Positions 6,901-48,944 of a stretch of DNA of 55,374 nt are shown here, one piece after another. Both the position numbers and the translations under genes were made by a program. The notes beneath the pieces are model-generated. The model was given only the letters and a program-made list of their open reading frames with translations. It did not search any database and was not told the origin of the DNA. Origin of the DNA: Chiloscyllium plagiosum (Eukaryota); contig NC_057718.1 in assembly GCF_004010195.1 (NCBI RefSeq), positions 93,802,179-93,857,552 of the forward strand. The letters are read 5' to 3'. Each line of letters starts with the position of its first letter. The first letter of the stretch is position 1.

Positions 6901-8039
6901 TCAGAGAACATTTGGTTCTCCAACATTGGTGATCTCACAATGACTGAGAGAAACTAGCAATGCCTACTTGGGTCAGAGAGTCCATTATAAAGCAAGGATA
7001 TCTACTACAAGGAGGACATCGGGTTAGTATTGCCAATCCTCAAGAACTGTCCTTGAGTCTCAAGGAATGAAAGGTTAATTGCTACCACATGGTAATGAGA
7101 AACCCAGGAAAATAGACAAAGAGACATTTTGTCTTTAAAATATGTTCCTTCTTCCCATTTACTTTGAATCTTTCAGATTATTCTTCACAAGAAAATTGGA
7201 GGTTTTAGAAAAATGGTGGTTTGAGAAATAGTCAAGAATCACTAGTTAAGCTCTTGGTGAACTTTAAGTTCTAATTGGTATAGGAAGGAATTGAACTTTG
7301 AGAATGGATGTTTGAGGTGACCAATGAAAAAAGTGTGGGAACTAGCCAGTTAAAGGTTGGAATTTTATGATTAAACCTCCAGGGGTACCTCCAGGCACAG
7401 TTGGTCACCCGGGTAGAAAGGGGACTGAGAGACTTTACCTTCTTCTGGGATAATCTTTGAAAACAACTGCAGAGTCAATTGACGTGTCATTCTAAGCATC
7501 AAGCTTATGTTCCAAACAGCAATCTGTATCCTTAACCACTGAATGAAATTGTTTGAGTGTGTTACTGCCATGTGAAAGATAGATTCTGGGTTTCAGCTCT
7601 ACTCCACTCCTTGGTTCACTCATCGGGCACGATAACTTATTGTTTGCAACTTTCTCCAGTTCATTAATAAGATCCTCAGCTAGAATTGTAGTAAGTGTTG
7701 CAACTTGTAAACATCAAGGAGAGGAGTGCCCTGCCATCAAGTGTTTAGTCACTGCGCCCCTTCACTTTCAAGAAATGGAACAGATCATGGCTCCAATTGC
7801 AAGTGTGCATGATGCTTCCTGCTTAAAATGCATACCTGCATGGAAGTGAATAAGGTAAGGACCAAAGCTAATGAGCTCCAAGGAGGAGATGCTAGAAAAT
7901 GCTTCTCCAGTCAGGCAGCATTCATAGAGACAGAGAAACAGATCACCCTTCACAAATCTCAGAATGCAATGAACTACCATGCTGGTGCCTCTAGGCAGAG
8001 ACCTTGCTTATCACTAAGACTAAAATAAAGTACAACTGC

Positions 8040-14021: not shown

Positions 14022-14332
14022 CCATTGAATACATGAAGAATTACTGACAATAATAACCTAATAACCTGAGGAAGAACTTACACTGTCCTGGAATACATGT
14101 GACTCCAGACCCACAGTAATATGGTTGATTCTTAACTGTCCTCTCAGCCACTCAGTTCAAGGGTAATTAAGGATGGGCATCAAATGCTGGCCTTTCCAGC
14201 ATTGTCCGCATCCCATGAAAGAATAAATAAAAGCTCTCCATTGATCTCCCACATCCTTTCTGTCCTTCCTGTTGCACATTGCCGCCTCGAACAGAAATGT
14301 AATAAACAAGTATAGGAGTAGGCCATTCAGAC

Positions 14333-14695
14333 TCCACCAGTTTCTTCACTTCCCCTCCATCCACCTTGCCCCAGTTCCAACCTTCCAGCTCAGCACCATC
14401 CTCATGACCTGTCCTACCTGTCAATCTTCCTTCCCACCTATCTGCTCCACCCTCCTCTCTGACCTATCACCTTCCCCCCCACCTCCATCCATCTATTGCA
14501 CTCTCAGCTACCTTCCCCTTCCCTCCCATTTATCTCTCCACCCCTGAGGCTCTCAGCATCATTGCTGATGATGGGCTTTTGCTCGGAATGTCAATTTTTC
14601 TGCTCCTCAGATGCTGCCTGACCTGCTGTGCTTTTCCAGCACCACTCTAATCTTGACTCTAATCTCCAGGATTTGCAGTACTCAATTCCGCCCAG
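14333..14695 (+). mobile_element. PLE family-A 3' fragment (C/T-rich UTR, degenerate hammerhead, tail) inside a minus-strand CR1 tail
   Basis: Shares CCAGTTCCAACCTTCCAGCTCAGCAC with 42350 and 47425; CTGATGATGGGCTTTTGCTCGGAA at 14565. Confidence 0.8.
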
Positions 14696-20054: not shown

Positions 20055-21390
20055 TTTTAAATTCATTCAGGGAATGTGGGCTCTGGTGGCTAAGTCAGCG
20101 TTTATTACCACCACTAATCGCCCTTGAGACGGTTGTGTTGAGAATCCTTCTTGAATGCCTGCACTCCACTTGCTGGTAGCAAGGGAAGGTCCAGGATTTT
20201 GACCCAGCAACCTTGTTTCCAAGTCAGGAAGATGATTCATTTGCAAAGGAATTTGCAGGTGGTCGGGTTCCCATGCAACTGCTGTCCTTGTCCCTCCAGA
20301 TAGCAATAGTCATGTTTTTGGAAGGTCCGATTTCAAGACCCTTGTGAATTTCTGCAGTACATCTTGCTGATAGCACACACTCCTGCTACTGCACATCAAT
20401 GATGGAGGGAGTTAATGTTTGTAGATATGATGCCAATCAGGGGAAATGCTTTCTTCTGAATAATGTCAAACCTCTTGGGTATTGTTGGAGCTGCACTCCT
20501 CCAGGTCAATGGGAAATATTCCCTTACACTTCTGATGTATGCTTTGTAGATGGTAGACAGAATCTGGGGAGTCAGGAGGTGAGTTGCTCACTGCTGGATG
20601 CCCAGCCTCTGATCTGCTCTTACAGCTACAGCGTTTTAGTCTAGTCAGTTTTTGGTGAATATTATTCCTCACAATGTAGGTAATGGAGGGCTCAGTGATA
20701 GTTCCGACATTGAATGTCGAGGGGCCAAGATCAGATTCTCTTTTGTTAGGGATGATCATTGCCATAAGCTTGCTTGGTGTAATATTACTCATCACCTGAT
20801 AGCTCAGGCCTGGATATTGTCCAGATACTTCTGCGTTTGGACATGGACTGCTTCAGTGTCTGAGGAGTCATGAATGGTGATGAACATTGGCCATCATGCA
20901 AACATCCCCACTTCTGACCTTTCAATCGACAGAAAGCCATTGATGGAGCAGCTGAAGATGGTTGGACCTAAGACAATACCCTGAGGAACTCTTGCAGAGA
21001 TGTCCTGGAGCTGAGATGACTGACGTCCATCAACCACAACCATCTGCCTGTTTGCCAGGTTGGATTCCGACCATTGGAGACTTTTGCTCATGATTCCCAT
21101 AATGCTTTGTTTTGATTGGGCTCCTTGAGGCTACATTCAGCCAAATGCGGCCTTGTTGTCAAGGATGAAAACAGGAATTGTTGGAAATTCTGAAGAAGGG
21201 TCACTGGACCTGAAGCATTAACTCTGATTTCTCGCCCCAGAGGCTGCTGGACCTGTTGAGATTTTCCAGCAACTTCTATTTTTGTTTCAGAATTCTAGCA
21301 ATTGTAGTCTTTGTTTTGATGTCAAGGACATTTACTCTCATAGCATCTCACCTCTGAAGTTCAGCTGTTTTGTCCACATTTGAACTGATT
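20055..21390 (-). mobile_element. CR1-clade LINE fragment with RT remnant
   Basis: QLQDISARVPQGIVLGPTIFSCSING...SEVGMFA; its 3' tail is shared with the second SINE family. Confidence 0.85.
21166..21315 (+). mobile_element. PLE family-C mini-insertion with degenerate hammerhead and short 5' inverted segment
   Basis: CTGAAGAAGGGTCACTGGACCTGAAGCATT at 21190; TSD TTGTTGTCAAGGA (21153-21165) / TTGATGTCAAGGA (21316-21328). Confidence 0.75.
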
Positions 21391-22246
21391 ACTAACCTAA
21401 TCATCTCTATTTTCCTCAGCCTCATTCCTTGAACCTTCCATTGGCCTTGCACTAGAATTCTGGGGAATCTCCTGAAAAATTCAGCCCCTGCAGATGTTTA
21501 GTCACAGTTGACTATCAGAACGTCACAAATCCCTTGTTTTTCCCTGAATCCCAGGATGAAGTTCACTCAGAGGTCTGTATTCCTGGACCATAACTTTGCT
21601 CTACTATGTCCAATTGACATTTACAGTTGTAACTCTTGACATGAGGTGTTTATTTATTAAACCATGAGCAAATGGCAAGCTGTCATGAAGACACTTCAGA
21701 ACCCAGATGGCAACAGGAAATTTCAATTGCTCATGGTTTTTCACAGTTGGTCTTGCCTTGTGCTAAAAGTGGGCCGAGCATGTCTTATTTTTGGCTCATT
21801 AAGCGAACCAATGTTATTACGCCACAGGTTTTTAAACATCAAAATTCAACCTTACCCAACCCATTCTCTGATCAGTTTCTGCCATTCAGTGTTTCAGAAC
21901 CTTGGAGCTGCCCATTACAACGTCTTGTGGCTTTTGCCCACAGCTTCTTCATTTTTTTTTTAAAAAGCTGAATACATTGAGGAAACCATTAAAATTACAG
22001 TACGTTCTCTTCAAATCAGGATTTCTGTGGCAGTCCGCTGCAGGTTATTGGCTTAGCTCATCTGATCTTTCTTAACTTGAATGATTCATATGGCTATTTC
22101 TCACTGGACAGACAACTCATGATGATTTATGTTATGCCTAAAGATTACAGTGAGAAAGACCCCTAAACTGTTCTTTACATCTCTCAAACCCCAATGTAGA
22201 GATTTTAAACTATTTGGTGCTAAATAGCTTTATTTTTTTTGATAGG

Positions 22247-22474
22247 CAAAAGTGAGGATTGCTGATGCTGGGAATCAGAGTCTTGATTAGAGTGGCGCAG
22301 GAAAAGCACAGCAGGTCAGGCAGCATCCGAGGAGCAGGAAAATCGATATTTTGGGCAAAAGCCCTTCATCAGCGTTCAGTCCTGATGAAGGGCTTTTGCC
22401 CAAAACGTCGATTTTCCTGCTCCTTGGATGCAGCCTGACCTGCTGTGCTTTTCCAGCACCACTCTAATCTCGAC
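22247..22474. mobile_element. PLE family-A inverted pair
   Basis: Minus copy 22247-22372, short spacer, plus copy from 22381 (CCTGATGAAGGGCTTTTGCCCAAAACGTCG). Flanked by TTTATTTTTTTTGAT / TTTATGTTTTTTGAT. Confidence 0.85.
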
Positions 22475-22560
22475 ATTTATGTTTTTTGATGGCTGGTTTG
22501 TGACTTGTGAAACTTTGTTGGGAGATGATTATCTGTAGGTAAGAGGATGGGAGCAGGATG

Positions 22561-23289
22561 TACAAAGTTAAAAATCACACAACACCAGGTTATAGTCCAA
22601 CAGGTTTATTTAGAAGCACTAGCTTTCGGAGCACTGCTTCTTCATCAGGTGGTTGTGGAGTGTTAGATTGTGAGAAACAGAATTTATAACAGAAGTTTGC
22701 AGAGTGATGTAACTGAAATTATATATTGAAAATTACCTGGATTGTTTGTTTAGCCTCTCATTTGTTAGAATTACCATGTTGGTTTCAGTTCTTTTACATG
22801 TAAATCGCAAAACTTTTTTTAAAAGTTACATTCTCAAGTGAACTTTAACAATTGGTGTCGTTGGCCCAGATAATGCATTGAAGGTGTGAGGTGCCCTGTG
22901 TGAGGCTGTCTGTGCCCCAATGTTCAGATTGATTCTGACCATTGGACAGTTGGACTGAACACCCCAGTCCAACACCAGCATCTCCAAATCATGACTACCA
23001 TTGACACCACTAACTACTGGCATAAAGTGGAGAAGATCTCCAAGAAGATCGCACATAATGAGACTAAACAAACAATCCAAGTCTTTTTCAATATGTAATT
23101 TCAGTTACATCACACTGTAAACGTCTGCTCTAAATTCTGTGTCTTACAATCTTATACTCCACAACCACCTGATGAAAGAGCAGTGCTACGAAAGCTAGTG
23201 CTTCCAAATAAACCTGTTGGACTATAACCTGGTGTTGTGTGATTTTTAACTCTGTACACCCCAGTCCAACACCGGCATCTCCAAATCGA
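22561..23289. mobile_element. Internally deleted PLE family-B element with inverted pLTRs
   Basis: Inverted terminal segments of about 200 bp, each with a hammerhead motif; TSD GAGCAGGATG at 22551-22560 and 23290-23299. Confidence 0.85.
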
Positions 23290-24287
23290 GAGCAGGATGG
23301 ATTTTGAAAAAAAAATCCCAAAATGACACCGAGCATCTTGTGATATCCTGTTGCCTGACTCCAATCTGGTAAAGTGCAACTGGTTTGACATTCCCAGCAT
23401 CAGTAAACTGAAACCTTGCCAGCACTCTTTGTAATGAAAAGGTATATTTCGAGAAAGTGAAAATGTTAATTAAAGGACAATGGGAGAGTTTTTATTACGA
23501 CAACCCAAAGATAAATAAACAGCTCAAGGTACAATTCTACCTACCTGTTACCTAAGAGACCTCACGTAACATACCTGATAAATCATGGACAGCACTTTGC
23601 TGACAAAGGTCCAGTTTACCCTGCCAATGATAGTGCAGTATTGGACACGGGACAGGCAAACAAACATGGTCTGCCAGCCGAAGGTATTTAGCACTCTAAA
23701 CAAAATCTGTCTCCATACACTTAAGATTAGCACACAACTTAATTTTAAAAAGGGGGAGAAAATGCCACAGCAGCTAAGTTGGAATCTGATAGTCTTGTAG
23801 CACGCTGCACTGCTTCACTTAAAATTCTTTCAAAATCTAGTTCAAGTGAGCAATAATGGATGAACAGGTTTAAGCTGTCCTTCCCCAGTCAATACACAGC
23901 GAGACTTTGTATACTGCCCACCTACTGTTCGCATTCACAGGAAATCTGCATCATTGAAAGGAGATTACTTCCCTTGACAGTAAGCAGTGGTGAGCAATGA
24001 AAATTATTCCATTTGTCAGGAATTTAGCTTAACGTTAAGAAGCTTCCTTTGGAAAGGGGACTTTGAGGTGACCTAGTTGAAGTCCTTGAGATTAATGATG
24101 GCAATTGACACAGTCAATCCAGGCAAATTACGTACTTTGGGGAAATTTTCAAAGCACTGGGGGCATAAGGTAAAAATGAGAGTGCTAAAGATTGCTTCTG
24201 GACAATGTGGCATTAACAGAAGAATATACAAGTTGTAAGCGCTCAGGTTTAATCTCAAATTTGCCATGAGCCTAGCTCATGCTGACT

Positions 24288-24329
24288 GAGATTCCTGAAG
24301 AAGGGCTTATGCCCGAAACGTCGATTCTC
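24288..24329 (+). ncRNA. Minimal type-I hammerhead ribozyme motif (PLE family A)
   Basis: gagattc-CTGAAGA-A-GGGC-ttat-GCCC-GAA-ACGT-C-gattctc. Stem I has 6/7 pairs, palindromic ACGU; predicted cleavage 3' of C24322. Confidence 0.75.
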
Positions 24330-24420: not shown

Positions 24421-24671
24421 ACAGCAATTAAGTACTATGGTTGTTCATGAGAATTCCAACATTGGGAAAGAATGAATGGCCAAGATACCCAAACCTGATT
24501 GCTATCAGACAGAGGCACGAGAAGGAAAATTTGTGGCTGTTAATGAGAACAAGCTTAGGTTCCAGTCTGATGCCCCACCTCCATCATAGTTTACTGACAG
24601 CGACTGTCCAGACTCATAATTGTAGGTAGGATAGCAAAAAGCTGAAATAAGTTCAAATTGATCCAAAGAAG

Positions 24672-25005
24672 GGTCAGCATGGTGACTCAGTGGTTAGCAC
24701 TACTGCCCCACAGCGCCAGGAACTTGGGTTCAATTCCAGTCTTGGGTGACTGTCTGTGTGGAGCTTGCACATTCTCTCCATGCCTTCGGGTGGTCTGGTT
24801 TCTTCCCACAATCCAAAGATGTGTAAGTTAGGTGAATTGGCCGTGCTAAATTGCACATAGTGTTCAGGGATGTGTAGGTTAGGTGCATTAGTTAGGGGTA
24901 ATACAGAGTAATTGGGGAGGGGAAGAGATCTGGGTGGGTTACTCTTTGCTGTGAACTTGTTGGGCCAAATGGCCTGTTTCCTGTAGGGATTCTATAATTC
25001 TATGA
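24672..25005 (+). mobile_element. HE1 SINE
   Basis: A/B boxes, V-domain and (ATTCTAT) tail. Confidence 0.9.
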
Positions 25006-25194
25006 AAGATAAGCGAGGAACATCCCCTTTAATTTCTAAAGGCATCCCTGTGAGGAACTAAATTTAATCAATGCAGAACACCAACAAGAATTAATGTTTT
25101 TACATGTGGGAAACCTTCAAGGCTAAAGTTGAACATCTTCGTTGCTTAAGAATTCAGAATGGGTCATAACAGCAACCGATTTTACATAGCCCCT

Positions 25195-25290
25195 GAAGCA
25201 AAAACAGAAATTGCTGGAAAAGCCCAGCAGGTCTGGCAGCATCTGTGGAGAGAAATCACAGTCAATGTTTCAGTTCGAGTGCAGTTCTTT
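25195..25290 (-). mobile_element. PLE family-C fragment
   Basis: AAAACAGAAATTGCTGGAAAAGCCCAGCAGGTCTGGCAGCATCTG; a similar fragment lies at 40625-40700. Confidence 0.65.
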
Positions 25291-29467: not shown

Positions 29468-29985
29468 GAGTCATAGAGCTCTACAGCACAGAAACAGACC
29501 TTTTGCTCCAACAGGTCCATGCCGACCTAGATGGCCTAAGTTAATCTAGTCCTGTTTGCCAGCACTTGGCCCATATCCCTCTAAACCCTTCCTATTCATG
29601 TACCCATCCAGTTGCCTTGTTATAATTGTACCAGTCTCCATCACTTCCTCCGGCAGCTCATTCCACACACGCACCACCCTCTGTGTGAAACAGTTGCCCC
29701 TTAGGTCTTTTTTAAATCTTTCCCCTCTCACCTTAAACCTACATCCTCAAGTTTTGGACTCCCCTACCCCAGGAAAAAAAACCTTGACTATTCACCCTAT
29801 CCATGCCCTGCATGATTTTATAAACCTCCATAAGGTCACCCCTCAGCTTCTGACGGTCCAAAGAAATTACCCCCGGCCTATTCACCCTCTCCCTATAGCT
29901 CAAACCCTCCAACCCTGGCAACCTTCTCTTGGATCTTTTCTGACCCCTTTCAAGTTCCACAATGTCTTTTCTATAGGAGGGAGAC
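29468..29985 (-). mobile_element. CR1/HER1 3' fragment
   Basis: LPGLEGLSYRER...LRGDLMEVYKIM...QRVVRVWNELPEE. Confidence 0.9.
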
Positions 29986-30029
29986 CTTTGTCAAAAAGGG
30001 AAAAAGGGCTGGGCCTAGTAATTACAAGC

Positions 30030-32269: not shown

Positions 32270-32410
32270 TGTTGAAAATATGTTGCTGGAAAAGCACAGC
32301 AGGTCAGGCAGCATCCAAGGAACAGGAGAATCGATGTTTCAGGCATGAGCCCTTCTTCAGTTTTCAGCTCTGATCTCCAGCATCTGCAGTCCTCACTTTC
32401 TCCTAGAAGA
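32270..32410. mobile_element. PLE family-A insertion with 5' inversion
   Basis: Inverted hammerhead half 32270-32360, direct tail 32361-32410; perfect 14-bp TSD TGAATACCAGCAGT at 32256-32269 and 32411-32424. Confidence 0.85.
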
Positions 32411-38094: not shown

Positions 38095-38990
38095 TTATAG
38101 CAGTCTTCCCACTCCAGTCACAAGGTAGTAATTTTAAACATAATCCCATGACGTGGGGCAGGTAATCCAAGCTGGCATTCCAGGGCAGTACTGAAGGACT
38201 GCTGCATTGTTAGAGGCGCTGTCTTTTGGAGAAGATATTATACTCTGTCCCCTCCTGGGAGGTCGATGTAAATGTTAGCCATCGTGTGGAGGTGCCGGTC
38301 TTGGACTGGGATGGACAAAGTTAAAAATTTTCATGCATTGTCTGAGTTGAGATGTCACATTTTATTATAAAACCTAAAGTTATCTCGGGGCTGTGACTTG
38401 AAAGAAGTTTTGAGATGTTTATATTAATGAATCAAAACCTGCAACCCACTCTCAGTGATTAAAGACTTAAGGCTTAAACAGTGGTTAGCACTGCTGCCTC
38501 ACAGCGCCAGAGACCTGGGTTCAATTCCTGTCTCAGGCAACTGTCTGTATGGAGTTTGCACATTCTCCCCGTGTCTGCGTGGGTTTCCTCCGGGTGCTCT
38601 GGTTTCGTCCCACAGTCCAAAGATGTGCAGGTTAGGTGAATTGGCCATGCTAAGTTGCCCGTAGTGTTAGGTGAAGGGGTAAATGTAGGGGAATGGGTCT
38701 GGGTGGGTTGCTCTTCGGAGGGTTGGTGTGGATTTGTTGGGCCAAAGGGCCTGTTTCCACACTGTAAGTAATCTAATCAATCTAGGTTTGTTCACTATAT
38801 TGCACAGTTGTATGACACTTCTACTCTTCTACTCTAAATTCTGTGTCCTATGATCCTGCCCCATTCGCTCCCTGAGGAAGGAGCAGCGTTCCAAAAGCTT
38901 GTACTTCCAAAGAAACCTGTTGGACTATAACCTGGTGTTGTGTGATTTTTAACAATGTAAATTTTATCCAGCGTTATTTTGAAGAGCAGA
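38095..38990 (+). mobile_element. Deu-domain SINE split by a PLE family-B insertion, itself split by an HE1 SINE (38478-38783)
   Basis: Deu core GCAGTACTGAAGGACTGCTGCATTGTTAGAGGCGCTGTCTTTTGG. PLE 38286-38954 is bounded by a 17/20 TSD (38266-38285, 38955-38974). Confidence 0.7.
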
Positions 38991-39088
38991 CGTTTCAATC
39001 CCAAAGCTTGAATTAACACTTCAGATTGTTATTAAATTGGGGTAGGTAGGACTTCACATTGGACAAAATTGGCGGTCGTGTTTACAAG

Positions 39089-39217
39089 GAGAAAGTGAGG
39101 ACTGCAGATGCTGGAGATCAGAGCTGAAAATGTGTTGCTGGAAAAGCGCAGCAGGTCAGGCAGCATCCAAGGAGCAGGAGAATCGATGTTTCGGGCATCA
39201 TCCCTTCTTCAGGTATC
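39089..39217 (-). mobile_element. PLE family-A mini-insertion
   Basis: Reverse complement of the 24291 element; TSD TTTACAAG at 39081-39088 and 39218-39225. Confidence 0.85.
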
Positions 39218-39659
39218 TTTACAAGCAGACTGTCGAGAAAACGGAGGTGTCCACAGGCTAAAGGCCCTCTACTGAGGCAAATCCTTCCTTCTCATACAAA
39301 CTGACAACAGGAATTGCAGACACTTAGGTGACCCTCATGGGGGGGGGGGGGGGGGGAAGCAGAAACCTTAAACACACTGCAATTATAAAGCAAGACACGC
39401 AAGGCTTTTTCTCATTGCTCGTCAAATTTCAAAATGCATTGGTTCTTTAAAAAGAAGAAAAAACGGCCACGGTTGTCAGTATTTTGTGTAATTGTAGGTG
39501 ATGTGTACACTGCCTCCTCTTTGTTCCAATAACCCAGCGCCAGCTCACTCTGTTTGTCGAGCTCCAGAGGATTTGTTGACAAGTTCTCCTCCAGCAAATT
39601 GTGTTTAGACAACAGTACAGTATATTTCATTCAGGTCGGCTGCACTGACGAGACCAAGG

Positions 39660-40260
39660 TCAGCTTTATATTCTGTTGAAATCATAAATTGACACTTGAG
39701 ATAAACAGAATGTTTATCCACTCCGTCTGAGCTGAAGCTGATATGTAAATTTATCCTCACTCTTTCATCAAATTTGCATTCGCCCTCTTAATCAAACACC
39801 GTGGGCCTCCAAATCAAACAGATTTTTAATGATGGTCAACCAATTATGACCCGTTGCCATATCAGGAAGTGAAACAGCAATTTAGATTCAAATAGAAAGT
39901 GGAGTAGCTATTGTCAGGCAGTTCAACAATAATTGGATCAACTTTATTTTTTTGGGGTGCAAGTGAATCGCCTGTTTGGCGATTAAACTGCTCCCCGCCC
40001 CCCTTTCACAGCGCTTAATTTTGCTTTGTTTTATCTGTCTAAAACAGGCTTTATTCACCTGCCGCTTTGTGATGTGGAGGAGACACCTACCCAAGAGATA
40101 GGCGCCTGAGCTCATCATCCTTAGAGATCCCAGGCTCCACTGAAAGCGCAAAGCCCTTTCTTCGTAGGTTGTCATATTTGCATTTAAATGATTGATTTGC
40201 AGCTTCCCCCCTCCTTTACCGTAATCTTTGAAAGTAAGCAGGAAAGAAGTGTGCGTTTTT
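39660..40260. promoter_or_regulatory. Candidate conserved non-coding element / enhancer
   Basis: Repeat-free, retains CpGs, dense in homeodomain, octamer-like (ATTTGCAT twice), Sox (AACAAT), ETS (CAGGAAGT) and Fox motifs. Conservation not tested. Confidence 0.4.
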
Positions 40261-41089
40261 GACATCCGTCGAAAATGTAACAGCCTTTTGCAAACACAGA
40301 CTTGAAGAGCAGGCCAAGTTAGACTGCTGAACTTTCCTTAATTTAACTCTGACCTTTTACCAAGCAGCACCTTTGGAAACGAGCTCCCACCCGTACGCAT
40401 ACACACAACCCCCTCCCCAATCACTGTAAAGAGAAAACGCCAGCAAGTTGCAAATTGTGACCTGATGGGATTGTGAGTTTTACAGGCAGTAATATTGAAG
40501 AATGTAGATGTCTGGGTGAGAGACAGGAGTTTTTACAAACGCACTCCGGACTAGGCTCACCTGGGCACAGATTTGAAGGTGGGGGCAACAAAATATTTAG
40601 TCCACGTTGGAGGAAAAAAAAAGCTGTCAATTTGTTGGTGAAACTCAGCAGGTCTGGCAGCATCTGCGGGGAGAAAGCAGAGTTAACGTTTCAGGTCAGT
40701 GCTTTGTTTGCAGTTGGCTTGAGAGGAGGTGTCTGTCTCGCTTTGTAGCCCCGTTGCTTCTCACGAACAAAAACCATTGAAAAGTTAACAAGTTCAGGGC
40801 AAATCAACTGACAACGCAGACAAAACAATGGCGGCGGGGGGGGGAGAGAGAGCGAGAGCGAGAAACGTGTCTTTATTTAAAATTCTTCGTCTAAGAGAGC
40901 GAAGGAAGTGCAGTCCTCGCTAGGAAACTTCACTCTGGGCAGCGGGAATGTTTTAAATGAATAGTCCGGTGGGGGTGGGTGGGGGAACCAGTGTTTGCAA
41001 AAAAAAACTCATTTTACAGACACAAGGGAGTGACATGTGTTGCTGTTCACCCACTTTAGTGCTTGTCTTACACTTTAAAAACAAAATTC

Positions 41090-41470: not shown

Positions 41471-41848
41471 GGGGGAACAGAGGAGTGAGCCCTCTCTGCT
41501 AGCTCCAGGTCGCTGGCCTGTGCTTCTCTCTGGCTAAGATGATGTGTTTTAGTGTGAGTGAAATACACCATGTTTTACCATGTTTTGAACCAGTCACCTT
41601 TCTTTTCATTTCTTGCCCCGTCCCATCCCCGCCAGTAATACAACTCGTTTTTTTTTTAAGGTTTGCTTGCTTGGCAACATAGCCACTACACCAACACATC
41701 TAGCCAGAGGGTAGTGAATCTATTGAAATTCTGGCTGTAGAAGCTGGTCCATCAAGTAAATTCATGGCTGGAGTAGACAGATTTGTAATCAGTCAGAGAA
41801 TCAAGGGTATTGAGGAAAAGGCATGAAAGTGGAGTTCAGGATTATCAA

Positions 41849-42393
41849 AGACCGTCCCTTTCGTGACTACCTGGTCAGGTCCTCACCCCCCTACAACCCA
41901 CCCTCCCATCCTGGCACCTTCCCCTGCCACCACAGGGATTGCAAAACCTGCGCCCACACCTCCTCCCTCACCTCCATCCAAGGCCCTAAAGGAGCTTTCC
42001 ATATCCATCAAAGTTTTACCTGCACGTCCACCAATATCATTTATTGTATCCGTTGCTCCCGATACGGTCTCCTCTACATTGGGGAGACTGGATGCCTCCT
42101 AGCAGAGCACTTTAGGGAACATCTCTGGGACACCCGCACCAATCAACCACACCGCCCTGTGGCCCAACATTTCAACTCTCCCTCCCACTCTGCCGAGGAC
42201 ATGGAGGTCCTGGGCCTCCTTCACCGCCGCTCCCTCACCACCAGACGCCTGGAGGAAGAACGCCTCATCTTCCGCCTCGGAACACTTCAACCCCAGGGCA
42301 TCAATGTGGACTTCAACAGCTCCCTCATTTCCCCTTCCCCCACCTCACCCCAGTTCCAAACTTCCAGCTCAGCACTGCCCCCATGACTTGTCC
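41849..42393 (+). mobile_element. Neptune-type Penelope element: Cys-rich linker, GIY-YIG endonuclease C-terminus and start of 3' UTR
   Basis: ORF 41823-42386: PCHHRDCKTC...NIIYCIRCSRYGLLYIGETG...FREH...VAQHF...RRLEEERLIFRLGTLQPQGIN. Inserted after a CR1 3' remnant (41705-41848) and truncated by the gap. Confidence 0.9.
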
Positions 42394-43292
42394 NNNNNNN
42401 NNNNNNNNNNNNNNNNNNNNNNNNNNNNNNNNNNNNNNNNNNNNNNNNNNNNNNNNNNNNNNNNNNNNNNNNNNNNNNNNNNNNNNNNNNNNNNNNNNNN
42501 NNNNNNNNNNNNNNNNNNNNNNNNNNNNNNNNNNNNNNNNNNNNNNNNNNNNNNNNNNNNNNNNNNNNNNNNNNNNNNNNNNNNNNNNNNNNNNNNNNNN
42601 NNNNNNNNNNNNNNNNNNNNNNNNNNNNNNNNNNNNNNNNNNNNNNNNNNNNNNNNNNNNNNNNNNNNNNNNNNNNNNNNNNNNNNNNNNNNNNNNNNNN
42701 NNNNNNNNNNNNNNNNNNNNNNNNNNNNNNNNNNNNNNNNNNNNNNNNNNNNNNNNNNNNNNNNNNNNNNNNNNNNNNNNNNNNNNNNNNNNNNNNNNNN
42801 NNNNNNNNNNNNNNNNNNNNNNNNNNNNNNNNNNNNNNNNNNNNNNNNNNNNNNNNNNNNNNNNNNNNNNNNNNNNNNNNNNNNNNNNNNNNNNNNNNNN
42901 NNNNNNNNNNNNNNNNNNNNNNNNNNNNNNNNNNNNNNNNNNNNNNNNNNNNNNNNNNNNNNNNNNNNNNNNNNNNNNNNNNNNNNNNNNNNNNNNNNNN
43001 NNNNNNNNNNNNNNNNNNNNNNNNNNNNNNNNNNNNNNNNNNNNNNNNNNNNNNNNNNNNNNNNNNNNNNNNNNNNNNNNNNNNNNNNNNNNNNNNNNNN
43101 NNNNNNNNNNNNNNNNNNNNNNNNNNNNNNNNNNNNNNNNNNNNNNNNNNNNNNNNNNNNNNNNNNNNNNNNNNNNNNNNNNNNNNNNNNNNNNNNNNNN
43201 NNNNNNNNNNNNNNNNNNNNNNNNNNNNNNNNNNNNNNNNNNNNNNNNNNNNNNNNNNNNNNNNNNNNNNNNNNNNNNNNNNNNNNNNNNNN
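42394..43292. other. Assembly gap (899 N)
   Basis: Run of N. Confidence 1.
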
Positions 43293-47234: not shown

Positions 47235-47757
47235 TGTGGTAGCCAACTCCTCCTCCCACTCTGCCAATGACATGCAGGTCCTGGGCCTCCTCCATTGCCA
47301 AACCCTAACCACTTGACGCTTGGAGGAGGAACGCCTCATTTCCCTGCCTTAGGACCCTACAACCATGCGGGAACAATATGGATTTCACCAGTTTCCCCAT
47401 TTCCCTCTCCCCACCTTATCCCAGTCCCAACCTTCCAACTCAGCACTGCCCGATTGAAAGGTCCTACATATCCATCTTCCTTCCCAACTATCCGCTCCAC
47501 TCTCCTCTCTGACCTGCCACCATCACCCCACCTTCATCTACTTATCACACTCTCAGCTACCTTGTCCACTCCCCCCCCACCCCCAGTCCACTCCCCTCCC
47601 ATTTATCTCTCAGCACCACCCGGCCCACAAGCCTCCATCTTGATGAGGGCTTATGCTCGAAATGTTGACTCTCCTGCTCCTCGGATGCTGCCTGACCGGC
47701 TGTGCTTCTTCAGCACAACACTCTTCAACTCTGATCTCCAGCATCTCACTTTCTCCC
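47235..47757 (+). mobile_element. PLE family-A 3' fragment (GIY-YIG tail, UTR, degenerate hammerhead, terminus)
   Basis: Homologous to 42160-42393, then continues to TTGATGAGGGCTTATGCTCGAAATGTTG at 47640 and the CTCACTTTCTCC end. Confidence 0.85.
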
Positions 47758-48543
47758 TGTGGCAGCCATTTGTAAAATTTGGCTTGTCAGTACTTGACTG
47801 ACCATGAGGTGACTGTACCTATTCTCTCAATGGCTTTGACGTAGGTTCCCAGTTCCCAGTTGTCGCCTTCACATGGACACATACTGGCTGGGAAAACTAC
47901 AAACTAAAAGTTCTCACTCACTGAGCGGCAAGTCAACCTCTGTCAGATAAGTGCGGCAGATGTCACATGGTCAGATGCTAGGTGGTCGCAGTGTCCCTGT
48001 GGCCAAACCTCCCGGACGACCTCCCGCCAGAGCTGGCATTGCTCAGGATGTGCAAGCTGATGGTTCTTGCAAGTTGTTGAATTTTTTTTCGTCTGCCTGA
48101 ACAAAAAACTGGAAAAAAAAACCTCTGCCCAGGAGAATGGAATTTCGTTTGCTGTTTTCTGACAACACATTACAAGCTGTCATCAGATCCTGATCTGATT
48201 TATCGTGAAGAATTTAAATTAGATTTGGGGGGATTATCCAGGTCAGTTGCAATTGGGAGTCTACTTGCAAACTGTGTGGAAAATATTTCAAACTCCACAG
48301 GCAGTAATGAGCCACTTTGTGAATTACTTCTTGAACCCTTAATACTTGTACGGCAACAGTTTATTTAAACAGCTGGGACATCCTGTGAAATGCAACACTG
48401 ACAATACTATCCTCCACATAAGAATTTCTGGAACTGATCATGAAGTTAGCTGATGTTTGTCAATGGGGCTAATACAAGACCTGCACCACAGAGCATCCAA
48501 TCAAAGTAATGCCACCGCAGACATGTTGAGTGTGACACTCGGT

Positions 48544-48671
48544 TCCTGAAGAAGGGCTCATGCCCGAAACGTTGATTCTCCTGCTCCTTGGATGCTGCCT
48601 GACCTGCTGCGCTTTTCCAGCAACACATTTTTCAGCTCCGATCTCCAGCATCTGCAGTCCTCACTTTCTCC
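48544..48671 (+). mobile_element. PLE family-A mini-insertion with intact hammerhead core
   Basis: CTGAAGA-A-GGGC-tcat-GCCC-GAA-ACGT-T; TSD TGTGACACTCGGT (48531-48543) / TGTGACACTAGGT (48672-48684). Confidence 0.85.
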
Positions 48672-48944
48672 TGTGACACTAGGTGTTGGTTACACAGGAG
48701 TTTTGCATTTAGCAATAGACACTATGCAAGATTGATAAGGGGCCTTGTTGAATAATTGTAGTGTCCCTACCTCTGAGCATAGAGGCTGAAGTTCTGCTGC
48801 AGAGGTGTGTAGCAGCATCTGTGAACAGATTGATGAGAAAATGTCCAAGCAAGGTTGATGGCACAGGATTGCTGTTCCATTGAGGAGTTCGGTTTATGAA
48901 AAATATCAGTAGAATGAACAACACCTATATGTGGTCATGTGGAC

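Follow-up and report, generated by a model that had tools for sequence, protein, structure and literature searches.

Why should three repeat families (A, B and C) that keep the same hammerhead fold with different stem sequences lie together in positions 21166-24329 of a 55,374-nucleotide (nt) stretch of Chiloscyllium plagiosum DNA (contig NC_057718.1, positions 93,802,179 to 93,857,552; this whole stretch is the window, and its coordinates are used below)? The reading that we favour, with a probability of about 0.87, is that the span consists of four 5'-truncated insertions of the pseudo-long terminal repeat (pLTR) of Penelope-like elements (PLEs), with the known minimal type-I hammerhead at the head of each, and that the dispersed copies are fossils. 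The features of the span are these:

21166-21319, plus strand: family C insertion, a stub with the hammerhead at its head and a short inverted tail (21166-21187) joined to it, seen as a minus-strand self-match
21190-21219, plus strand: decayed family C hammerhead with core 21190-21196, the extra A, stem II 21198-21202/21207-21211, GAA, a damaged tetramer (GCAT) and N17 = U
22244-22481, no single strand: single insertion event of family A with a head-to-head inversion (inverted repeat I22, 93 nt, 91%)
22345-22372, minus strand: dead family A hammerhead, G12 changed to A, tetramer ATAT (CpG decay)
22382-22409, plus strand: dead family A hammerhead, G12 changed to A, ACGT retained
22561-23289, no single strand: single insertion event of family B, composite and inverted (inverted repeat I1, 202 nt, 90%)
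22620-22648, minus strand: family B hammerhead with one broken stem II pair; core and AGCT intact
23169-23197, plus strand: family B hammerhead with two broken stem II pairs, one of them 10.1-11.1; core and AGCT intact
24295-24322, plus strand: family A hammerhead, the sole intact one of the span, predicted cut after GUC

The families were located by a core scan and by nhmmer with four seeds taken from the window, and position-by-position scoring took in 17 copies with the CUGA half (ten A, six B and one C); fragments and degenerate copies near 7900, 10050, 22950, 25250, 38300, 40670 and 52721 stand outside this count. The core-plus-stem pattern gave five matches in the window versus none in each of 100 shuffles, and these five are repeat copies and hence not independent. 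No Rfam hammerhead family matched the window at the gathering threshold, which is expected because the motifs have no helix III. Four further features outside the span are needed to describe the families:

1746-1823, no single strand: head-to-head pair of intact family B hammerheads (1774, minus strand, and 1795, plus strand), predicted cut after CUA
25191-25285, minus strand: family C fragment lacking the CUGA half, tetramer ACAT
40626-40699, minus strand: family C fragment lacking the CUGA half, ACGT at 40686-40689
48546-48573, plus strand: intact family A hammerhead, N17 = U

To judge from the sequence, all three families carry a minimal type-I hammerhead that is real at the family level, with a different stem II in each: GGGC/GCCC in A, GGAGC/GCUCC in B and GGGUC/GACCU in C (21198-21211), the last differing from A by one additional U-A pair and in the loop. 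An extra unpaired base stands between positions 9 and 10.1 in 16 of the 17 copies, and the G10.1-C11.1 pair is G-C in most A and B copies and G-U in the single full C copy. Stem I comprises 3 base pairs (bp), a mismatch and 2 bp in B, 2 bp, a mismatch and 1 bp in A, and 4 bp in C, where the upstream letters come from loose ends of reads with an overall agreement of just 0.37. The tetramer is ACGT in four of ten A copies (CpG-decayed in the rest), AGCT in all six B copies and ACGT in one of the three C copies of the window. When the intact 24295 copy was folded as a monomer, stems I and II formed and the tetramer remained unpaired, giving no monomeric helix III. Folded as monomers, both B copies of the span give an alternative hairpin between the 5' side of stem II and the strand following the cut site, a fold that the intact copy at 1795 lacks.

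Single copies are another matter. Most depart from the full core, CUGANGA / GAAA-NN-U-H; this core is intact together with the stems in two A and two B copies (1774 minus, 1795 plus, 24295 plus and 48546 plus), that is, in 4 of 17 overall and in one of the six copies of the span. An initial annotation of this DNA had given the same stem II sequences, the tetramers ACGU in intact A copies, AGCU in B and ACGU in the C fragment near 40686-40689, and the co-occurrence of all three families within 21166-24329, all of which we could confirm; it had also stated that all have CUGANGA+A and GAA, which is true of the families and untrue of the copies, 11 of 17 retaining GAA.

Family C has the most decayed representative, since its copy at 21190 reads GAAG and then CAT and thus lacks both A15.1 and the palindrome. 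We therefore used reads from other copies of the families, aligned at 80% likeness onto 21140-22380 (sequencing runs X3 and X11 and the RNA run X21). At 21215 of the C copy the family base proved to be A, with 93% of the depth in X3, 91% in X11 and 124 of 131 RNA reads in X21, so that the family reads give GAAA back at this position, and A15.1 is supplied by these reads and by the fragment at 40690. The family C tetramer ACGU comes from one of three window copies and one C-like piece in run X11; the positions listed for the family reads leave out 21217. Family A reads in X3 likewise recovered G12 and ACGT, at 62-73% at three sites.

The span reads as four separate insertions. Target-site duplications flank the C insertion (9 bp, 21157-21165 / 21320-21328), the inverted A insertion (9 bp, T-rich, 22235-22243 / 22482-22490) and the composite B insertion (10 bp, 22551-22560 / 23290-23299), and also the A copy at 48546 outside the span (9 bp, 48531-48539 / 48672-48680); one was sought for the insert at 24295 and none was found. 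Inverted pairs occur at 1774/1795, 22372/22382 and 22648/23169, and an inverted tail at 21166. These 5'-truncated, inverted insertions with a tail have the architecture described for endonuclease-bearing (EN+) PLEs, and the inverted head-to-head structures and the duplications both fit it. Several side observations concern the same insertions. In each of the three families, the points of inversion or truncation lie upstream of the hammerhead core, no more than a few bases away (21166-21189, 22372-22382, 1774-1795 and 32358-32364), loose ends of reads accumulate at 21188 and 22372 in two organisms, and the composite B insertion has, between its arms, a third copy of the B tail in forward orientation (22952-22990).

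The flank 21344-22310 was also found in a related organism, with 33 differences over 971 bases; contigs of that organism extend from this flank into both the C insert and the A insert. Both inserts thus occupy the orthologous place and predate that split. The co-occurrence of the families calls for no special cause: when the 20 insertion events of the window were placed at random, three families fell within some 3164-nt span with a probability of 0.68, and we rejected a special clustering of A, B and C in 3.2 kb. A second stretch, 1.9 kb long (38805-40699), also has B, A and C copies together.

The link to PLEs comes from the coding remnants of the window:

14330-14691, plus strand: endonuclease-end/3' untranslated DNA continuing into a family A hammerhead at 14565 (same DNA as 47244-47760)
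41868-42383, plus strand: PLE endonuclease C-terminus with a Cx4CxxC linker, GIY-YIG and a His pair, stopping just short of the assembly gap at 42394-43292
47244-47760, plus strand: broken endonuclease end (tblastn E=6e-11) with a family A hammerhead at 47640 about 190 nt further on, and a tail

An open frame of about 170 codons (41814-42383) encodes an endonuclease end with the Cx4CxxC linker and the GIY-YIG motif, and the broken end at 47244-47760 has 79% DNA identity to 42173-42380. The nearest Atlas neighbours of the 41868-42383 protein are eukaryotic GIY-YIG clusters (0.96-0.97). The linker agrees with the Cx2-5CxxC signature of the Neptune and Nematis clades, a clade call made without a tree. 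Family A is thus evidently tied to a Neptune/Nematis-type GIY-YIG endonuclease end. The 44 nt downstream of the family C hammerhead are common with A (score 50 versus a shuffle maximum of 28 in 500 shuffles), and it is solely through this homology that C is linked to the GIY-YIG end. Outside the ribozyme, B showed no similarity to A or C, with 138 and 205 of 500 shuffles scoring as high. Since C shares the downstream sequence of A and B shares none, there are two lineages rather than three, and we rejected the notion of three independent confirmations of the fold. Of six read-through frames lying upstream of B or of the hammerhead at 47640, none matched a Pfam family. No reverse transcriptase motif was found next to the hammerhead copies in the window, where coding remnants near the span were sought by motif alone. 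The segment 41814-42393 is the least broken PLE endonuclease end of the window, and the gap beside it, the only run of N in the window assembly, may conceal its pLTR and hammerhead.

Is there selection on the ribozyme? Within family A (10 copies) the covariation score was 0.123 versus 0.128 for shuffled alignments, and 414 of 500 shuffles scored as high. No stem II pair was altered on both sides in these copies, and the only two-sided change was a double CpG decay inside the tetramer. CpG is depleted to 0.28 of expectation in the window, which is eukaryotic and rich in repeats. In the A copies, CpG cells had changed in 15 of 60 cases versus 25 of 320 elsewhere (p=3e-4); changes were present in 7 of 20 inner tetramer cells, and non-CpG core cells (5/100) and downstream cells (6/90) had changed about alike. 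Decay of the dispersed copies, which are fossils, falls mostly on CpG sites. Selection on the copies of the span was accordingly rejected (one of six intact, no covariation in A, CpG decay), and because the copies themselves decay, selection could act solely on master elements. For such vanished masters, and for them only, selection on the fold is plausible; that the whole fold is retained in the unrelated family B argues for constraint on them, which is the argument made in PMC4209133. The initial annotation had proposed that covariation between the families implies selection on the ribozyme. Its premise of PLE hammerheads with a fold preserved despite different stems was borne out (for A through the endonuclease end, for C through A, for B by architecture), and so was the fold across families; measurable covariation was not, as A has none, A and C are one lineage and B cannot be aligned outside the ribozyme.

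Under the favoured reading, a master transcript running through two pLTRs would carry a double hammerhead, in which the palindromic tetramers of both copies would pair as helix III and the 5' stem I strand of each copy would pair with the 3' strand of the other. The predicted cuts fall after GUC in A, GUU in C and CUA in B. To go by published PLE ribozymes, cleavage would probably be slow and aided by the element's protein. Truncated reverse transcripts may then leave hammerhead-headed stubs, which would later decay. As only the core, G10.1-C11.1 and the pairing would be constrained, lineages could drift to different stem II sequences.

Several points weigh against this reading. Insertion in vitro can do without the ribozyme in one published PLE, PAc (Poseidon, Anolis; Frangieh et al. 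2024, PMC11167929). Stem II of family A is still paired in 39 of 40 cells, although three of the four changes are C-to-T giving G-U, and the neutral-decay test, limited to 10 copies, has low power. The Pfam GIY-YIG match of the 41868-42383 protein (E=0.04, 14.7 bits) falls under its cut-off of 22.6. A Pfam and motif search of the window gave no open reading frame linked to B, so that architecture is what assigns this family to PLEs. No full-length or tandem element was found in the window, and family C has no intact copy there.

The alternative that survives best, though we consider it rather unlikely, is that the hairpin owed its retention in the master elements mainly to a role as a signal that binds protein or marks the boundary of reverse transcription, cleavage being of secondary importance; it is compatible with the pLTR reading. 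PAc ribozyme mutants insert in vitro, and no RNA-seq read begins or ends at the cut site in the data described for it (PMC11167929). Depth and loose ends in our reads show many copies beginning just upstream of the core. The polyA single-cell RNA run X21, of which about 2% was read, showed no pile-up of RNA beginnings or ends, a weak test of cleavage; RNA data carrying the flank of the span were absent from the listed sequencing runs. On the other hand, the catalytic bases and the NUH triplet are retained in all three families and in the 56 published motifs, which is more than a mere hairpin would need, and PAc does cleave, its ribozyme needing the element's protein to do so (PMC11167929).

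Could the tetramer be a selected compatibility code that protects the RNA of one PLE family from cleavage by others resident in the same genome, in line with the proposal of the initial annotation that differing tetramers could restrict dimer cleavage to compatible families? We regard this as improbable. In the dimer model described in PMC4209133, partner choice is set by helix III and by stem I, the latter formed between both copies. Judged by base pairing on paper, B fits neither A nor C in either helix. The pairing of ACGU with AGCU loses both inner pairs, and a forced A x B double hammerhead came to +6.2 kcal/mol versus -18.3 for A x A and -14.7 for B x B, in nearest-neighbour energies that leave out tertiary contacts. 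The retention of AGCT in every B copy also speaks for a code, but its persistence is accounted for by the absence of a CpG. ACGU, moreover, is common to A and C, and the enzyme (5') strand of C pairs with the substrate (3') strand of A at four stem I positions, two of them as G-U; in the reverse combination, A on C, stem I fails at the first pair. With 15.1 and 16.1 fixed as core bases, only two tetramer positions are free, so that four Watson-Crick classes at most are available.

In a hand tally of Fig. S3 of PMC4209133 (56 motifs, of which 15 with an extended helix III were set aside, leaving 41 minimal ones), the tetramer centre was CG in 29, GC in 5, UA in 5, AU in 1 and CA in 1, and co-resident families shared the tetramer in 8 of 15 pairs, against 7.8 expected. 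Thus the proposed restriction by tetramer was not supported: A and C share ACGU, C can pair with A in stem I and published co-resident families are not over-dispersed in tetramer. The incompatibility of B with A and C would most simply be a by-product of divergence. In the same modelling, homodimers lay above two monomers by +1.1 kcal/mol (A) and +5.1 kcal/mol (B), and since they are no more stable, pairing of separate molecules is unlikely without help; this is in keeping with a need for a tether or protein, and the presence of both partners on one RNA would already provide specificity. As a separate observation, the cut-site bases of A copies (24316-24326 and others) form a second near-palindrome overlapping the tetramer, which the lowest-energy two-strand A fold uses instead of the double hammerhead. 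A literature search for the tetramer or hetero-dimer compatibility idea found no statement of it, with most subscription papers outside the search.

More doubtful still is that read-through transcripts of solo copies cut or block master RNAs in trans, in a scheme where A and C cross-react and B stands apart. The polyA RNA of run X21 does contain family reads in both orientations, and the C-on-A pairing is possible on paper. However, helices of 4 bp plus 2-4 bp would by the modelled energies be too weak for separate molecules, 13 of the 17 copies are broken, and published minimal hammerhead ribozymes (min-HHRs) cleave poorly even in cis (PMC4209133). We give just as little credence to the combined idea that co-resident PLE lineages form orthogonal ribozyme pairs through stem I and tetramer jointly (A and C cross-reactive in one direction, B apart), the read-through solo copies braking compatible masters and thereby driving new lineages to change the code. 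If true, cross-family trans-cleavage shaping PLE evolution would be a new form of transposon self-regulation; the evidence here gives no such indication. That the local three-family cluster is a domesticated host device is hardly credible, for although six hammerhead copies lie in 3.2 kb with two inverted pairs, just the one at 24295 is intact, the target-site duplications are separate, and the clustering is both expected by chance and repeated at 38805-40699.

Two other repeat families are numerous in the window. One (24663-24990 and repeats D3, D4, D6 and D8) is presumably a short interspersed nuclear element-like family with a tRNA-like head. The other (29468-30017, minus strand, and repeats D5, D9 and D16-D18) is present as numerous 3' ends, which we take to be those of a long interspersed nuclear element whose translated end looks CR1/L2-like. 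Outside this genome, the core-plus-stem pattern matched 23 loci on viral contigs, none of which resembled families A, B or C by eye; the A/C tail motif matched no viral locus and 81 metagenomic loci, none of them (0/81) related by motif or nhmmer.

How do the three families compare with known systems? The role of PLE hammerheads is a standing question in the cited literature. A literature search on shark PLE hammerheads, with most subscription papers likewise outside it, returned nothing on point, its sole match using the word for a shape. The retrozymes of animals, non-long-terminal-repeat elements with type-I hammerheads derived from PLE pLTRs (bioRxiv 10.64898/2026.07.22.740005, a study described as sampling one chondrichthyan genome), are alike in their ribozyme; they form head-to-tail tandem arrays, however, and repeat analysis of the window found no such array. 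PAc has the same layout of a pLTR hammerhead followed by a tail, but the Poseidon clade, as described, lacks the Cx2-5CxxC linker that the family A endonuclease piece has. The Neptune and Nematis EN+ PLEs (Craig et al. 2021, PMC8557442) share with our families the C-terminal GIY-YIG, the linker, the 5'-truncated or inverted insertions and the tail; no reverse transcriptase that would settle the clade was found in the window, and B had no coding match. The dimer-cleaving PLE hammerheads of Lunse, Weinberg and Breaker (via PMC6765202) are alike in their palindromic, very short stem III, dimer cleavage and PLE association.

The closest match is with the min-HHRs in pLTRs of metazoan PLEs of Cervera and de la Pena (2014, PMC4209133), which are described as occurring in several families per genome, with compensatory stems, palindromic tetramers and an additional base ahead of stem II, families with CG and GC tetramers standing side by side in S. 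mansoni. Their cleavage is weak and takes place only in dimers or where helix III is extended (PMC4209133, PMC6765202). Cross-family compatibility is not among the topics of the available text of the 2014 paper, and its list of 56 motifs, in the form available, has no cartilaginous fish; stem II in A, B and C is short (4-5 bp). The three families match its consensus in each feature, and all features that we observed are already present in that description, while the families themselves are absent from its list. They add three family motifs from one further vertebrate lineage to the class described in 2014, and they offer a natural panel for dimer partner choice, in which two related families with the same tetramer and a different stem I stand beside an unrelated family with another tetramer.

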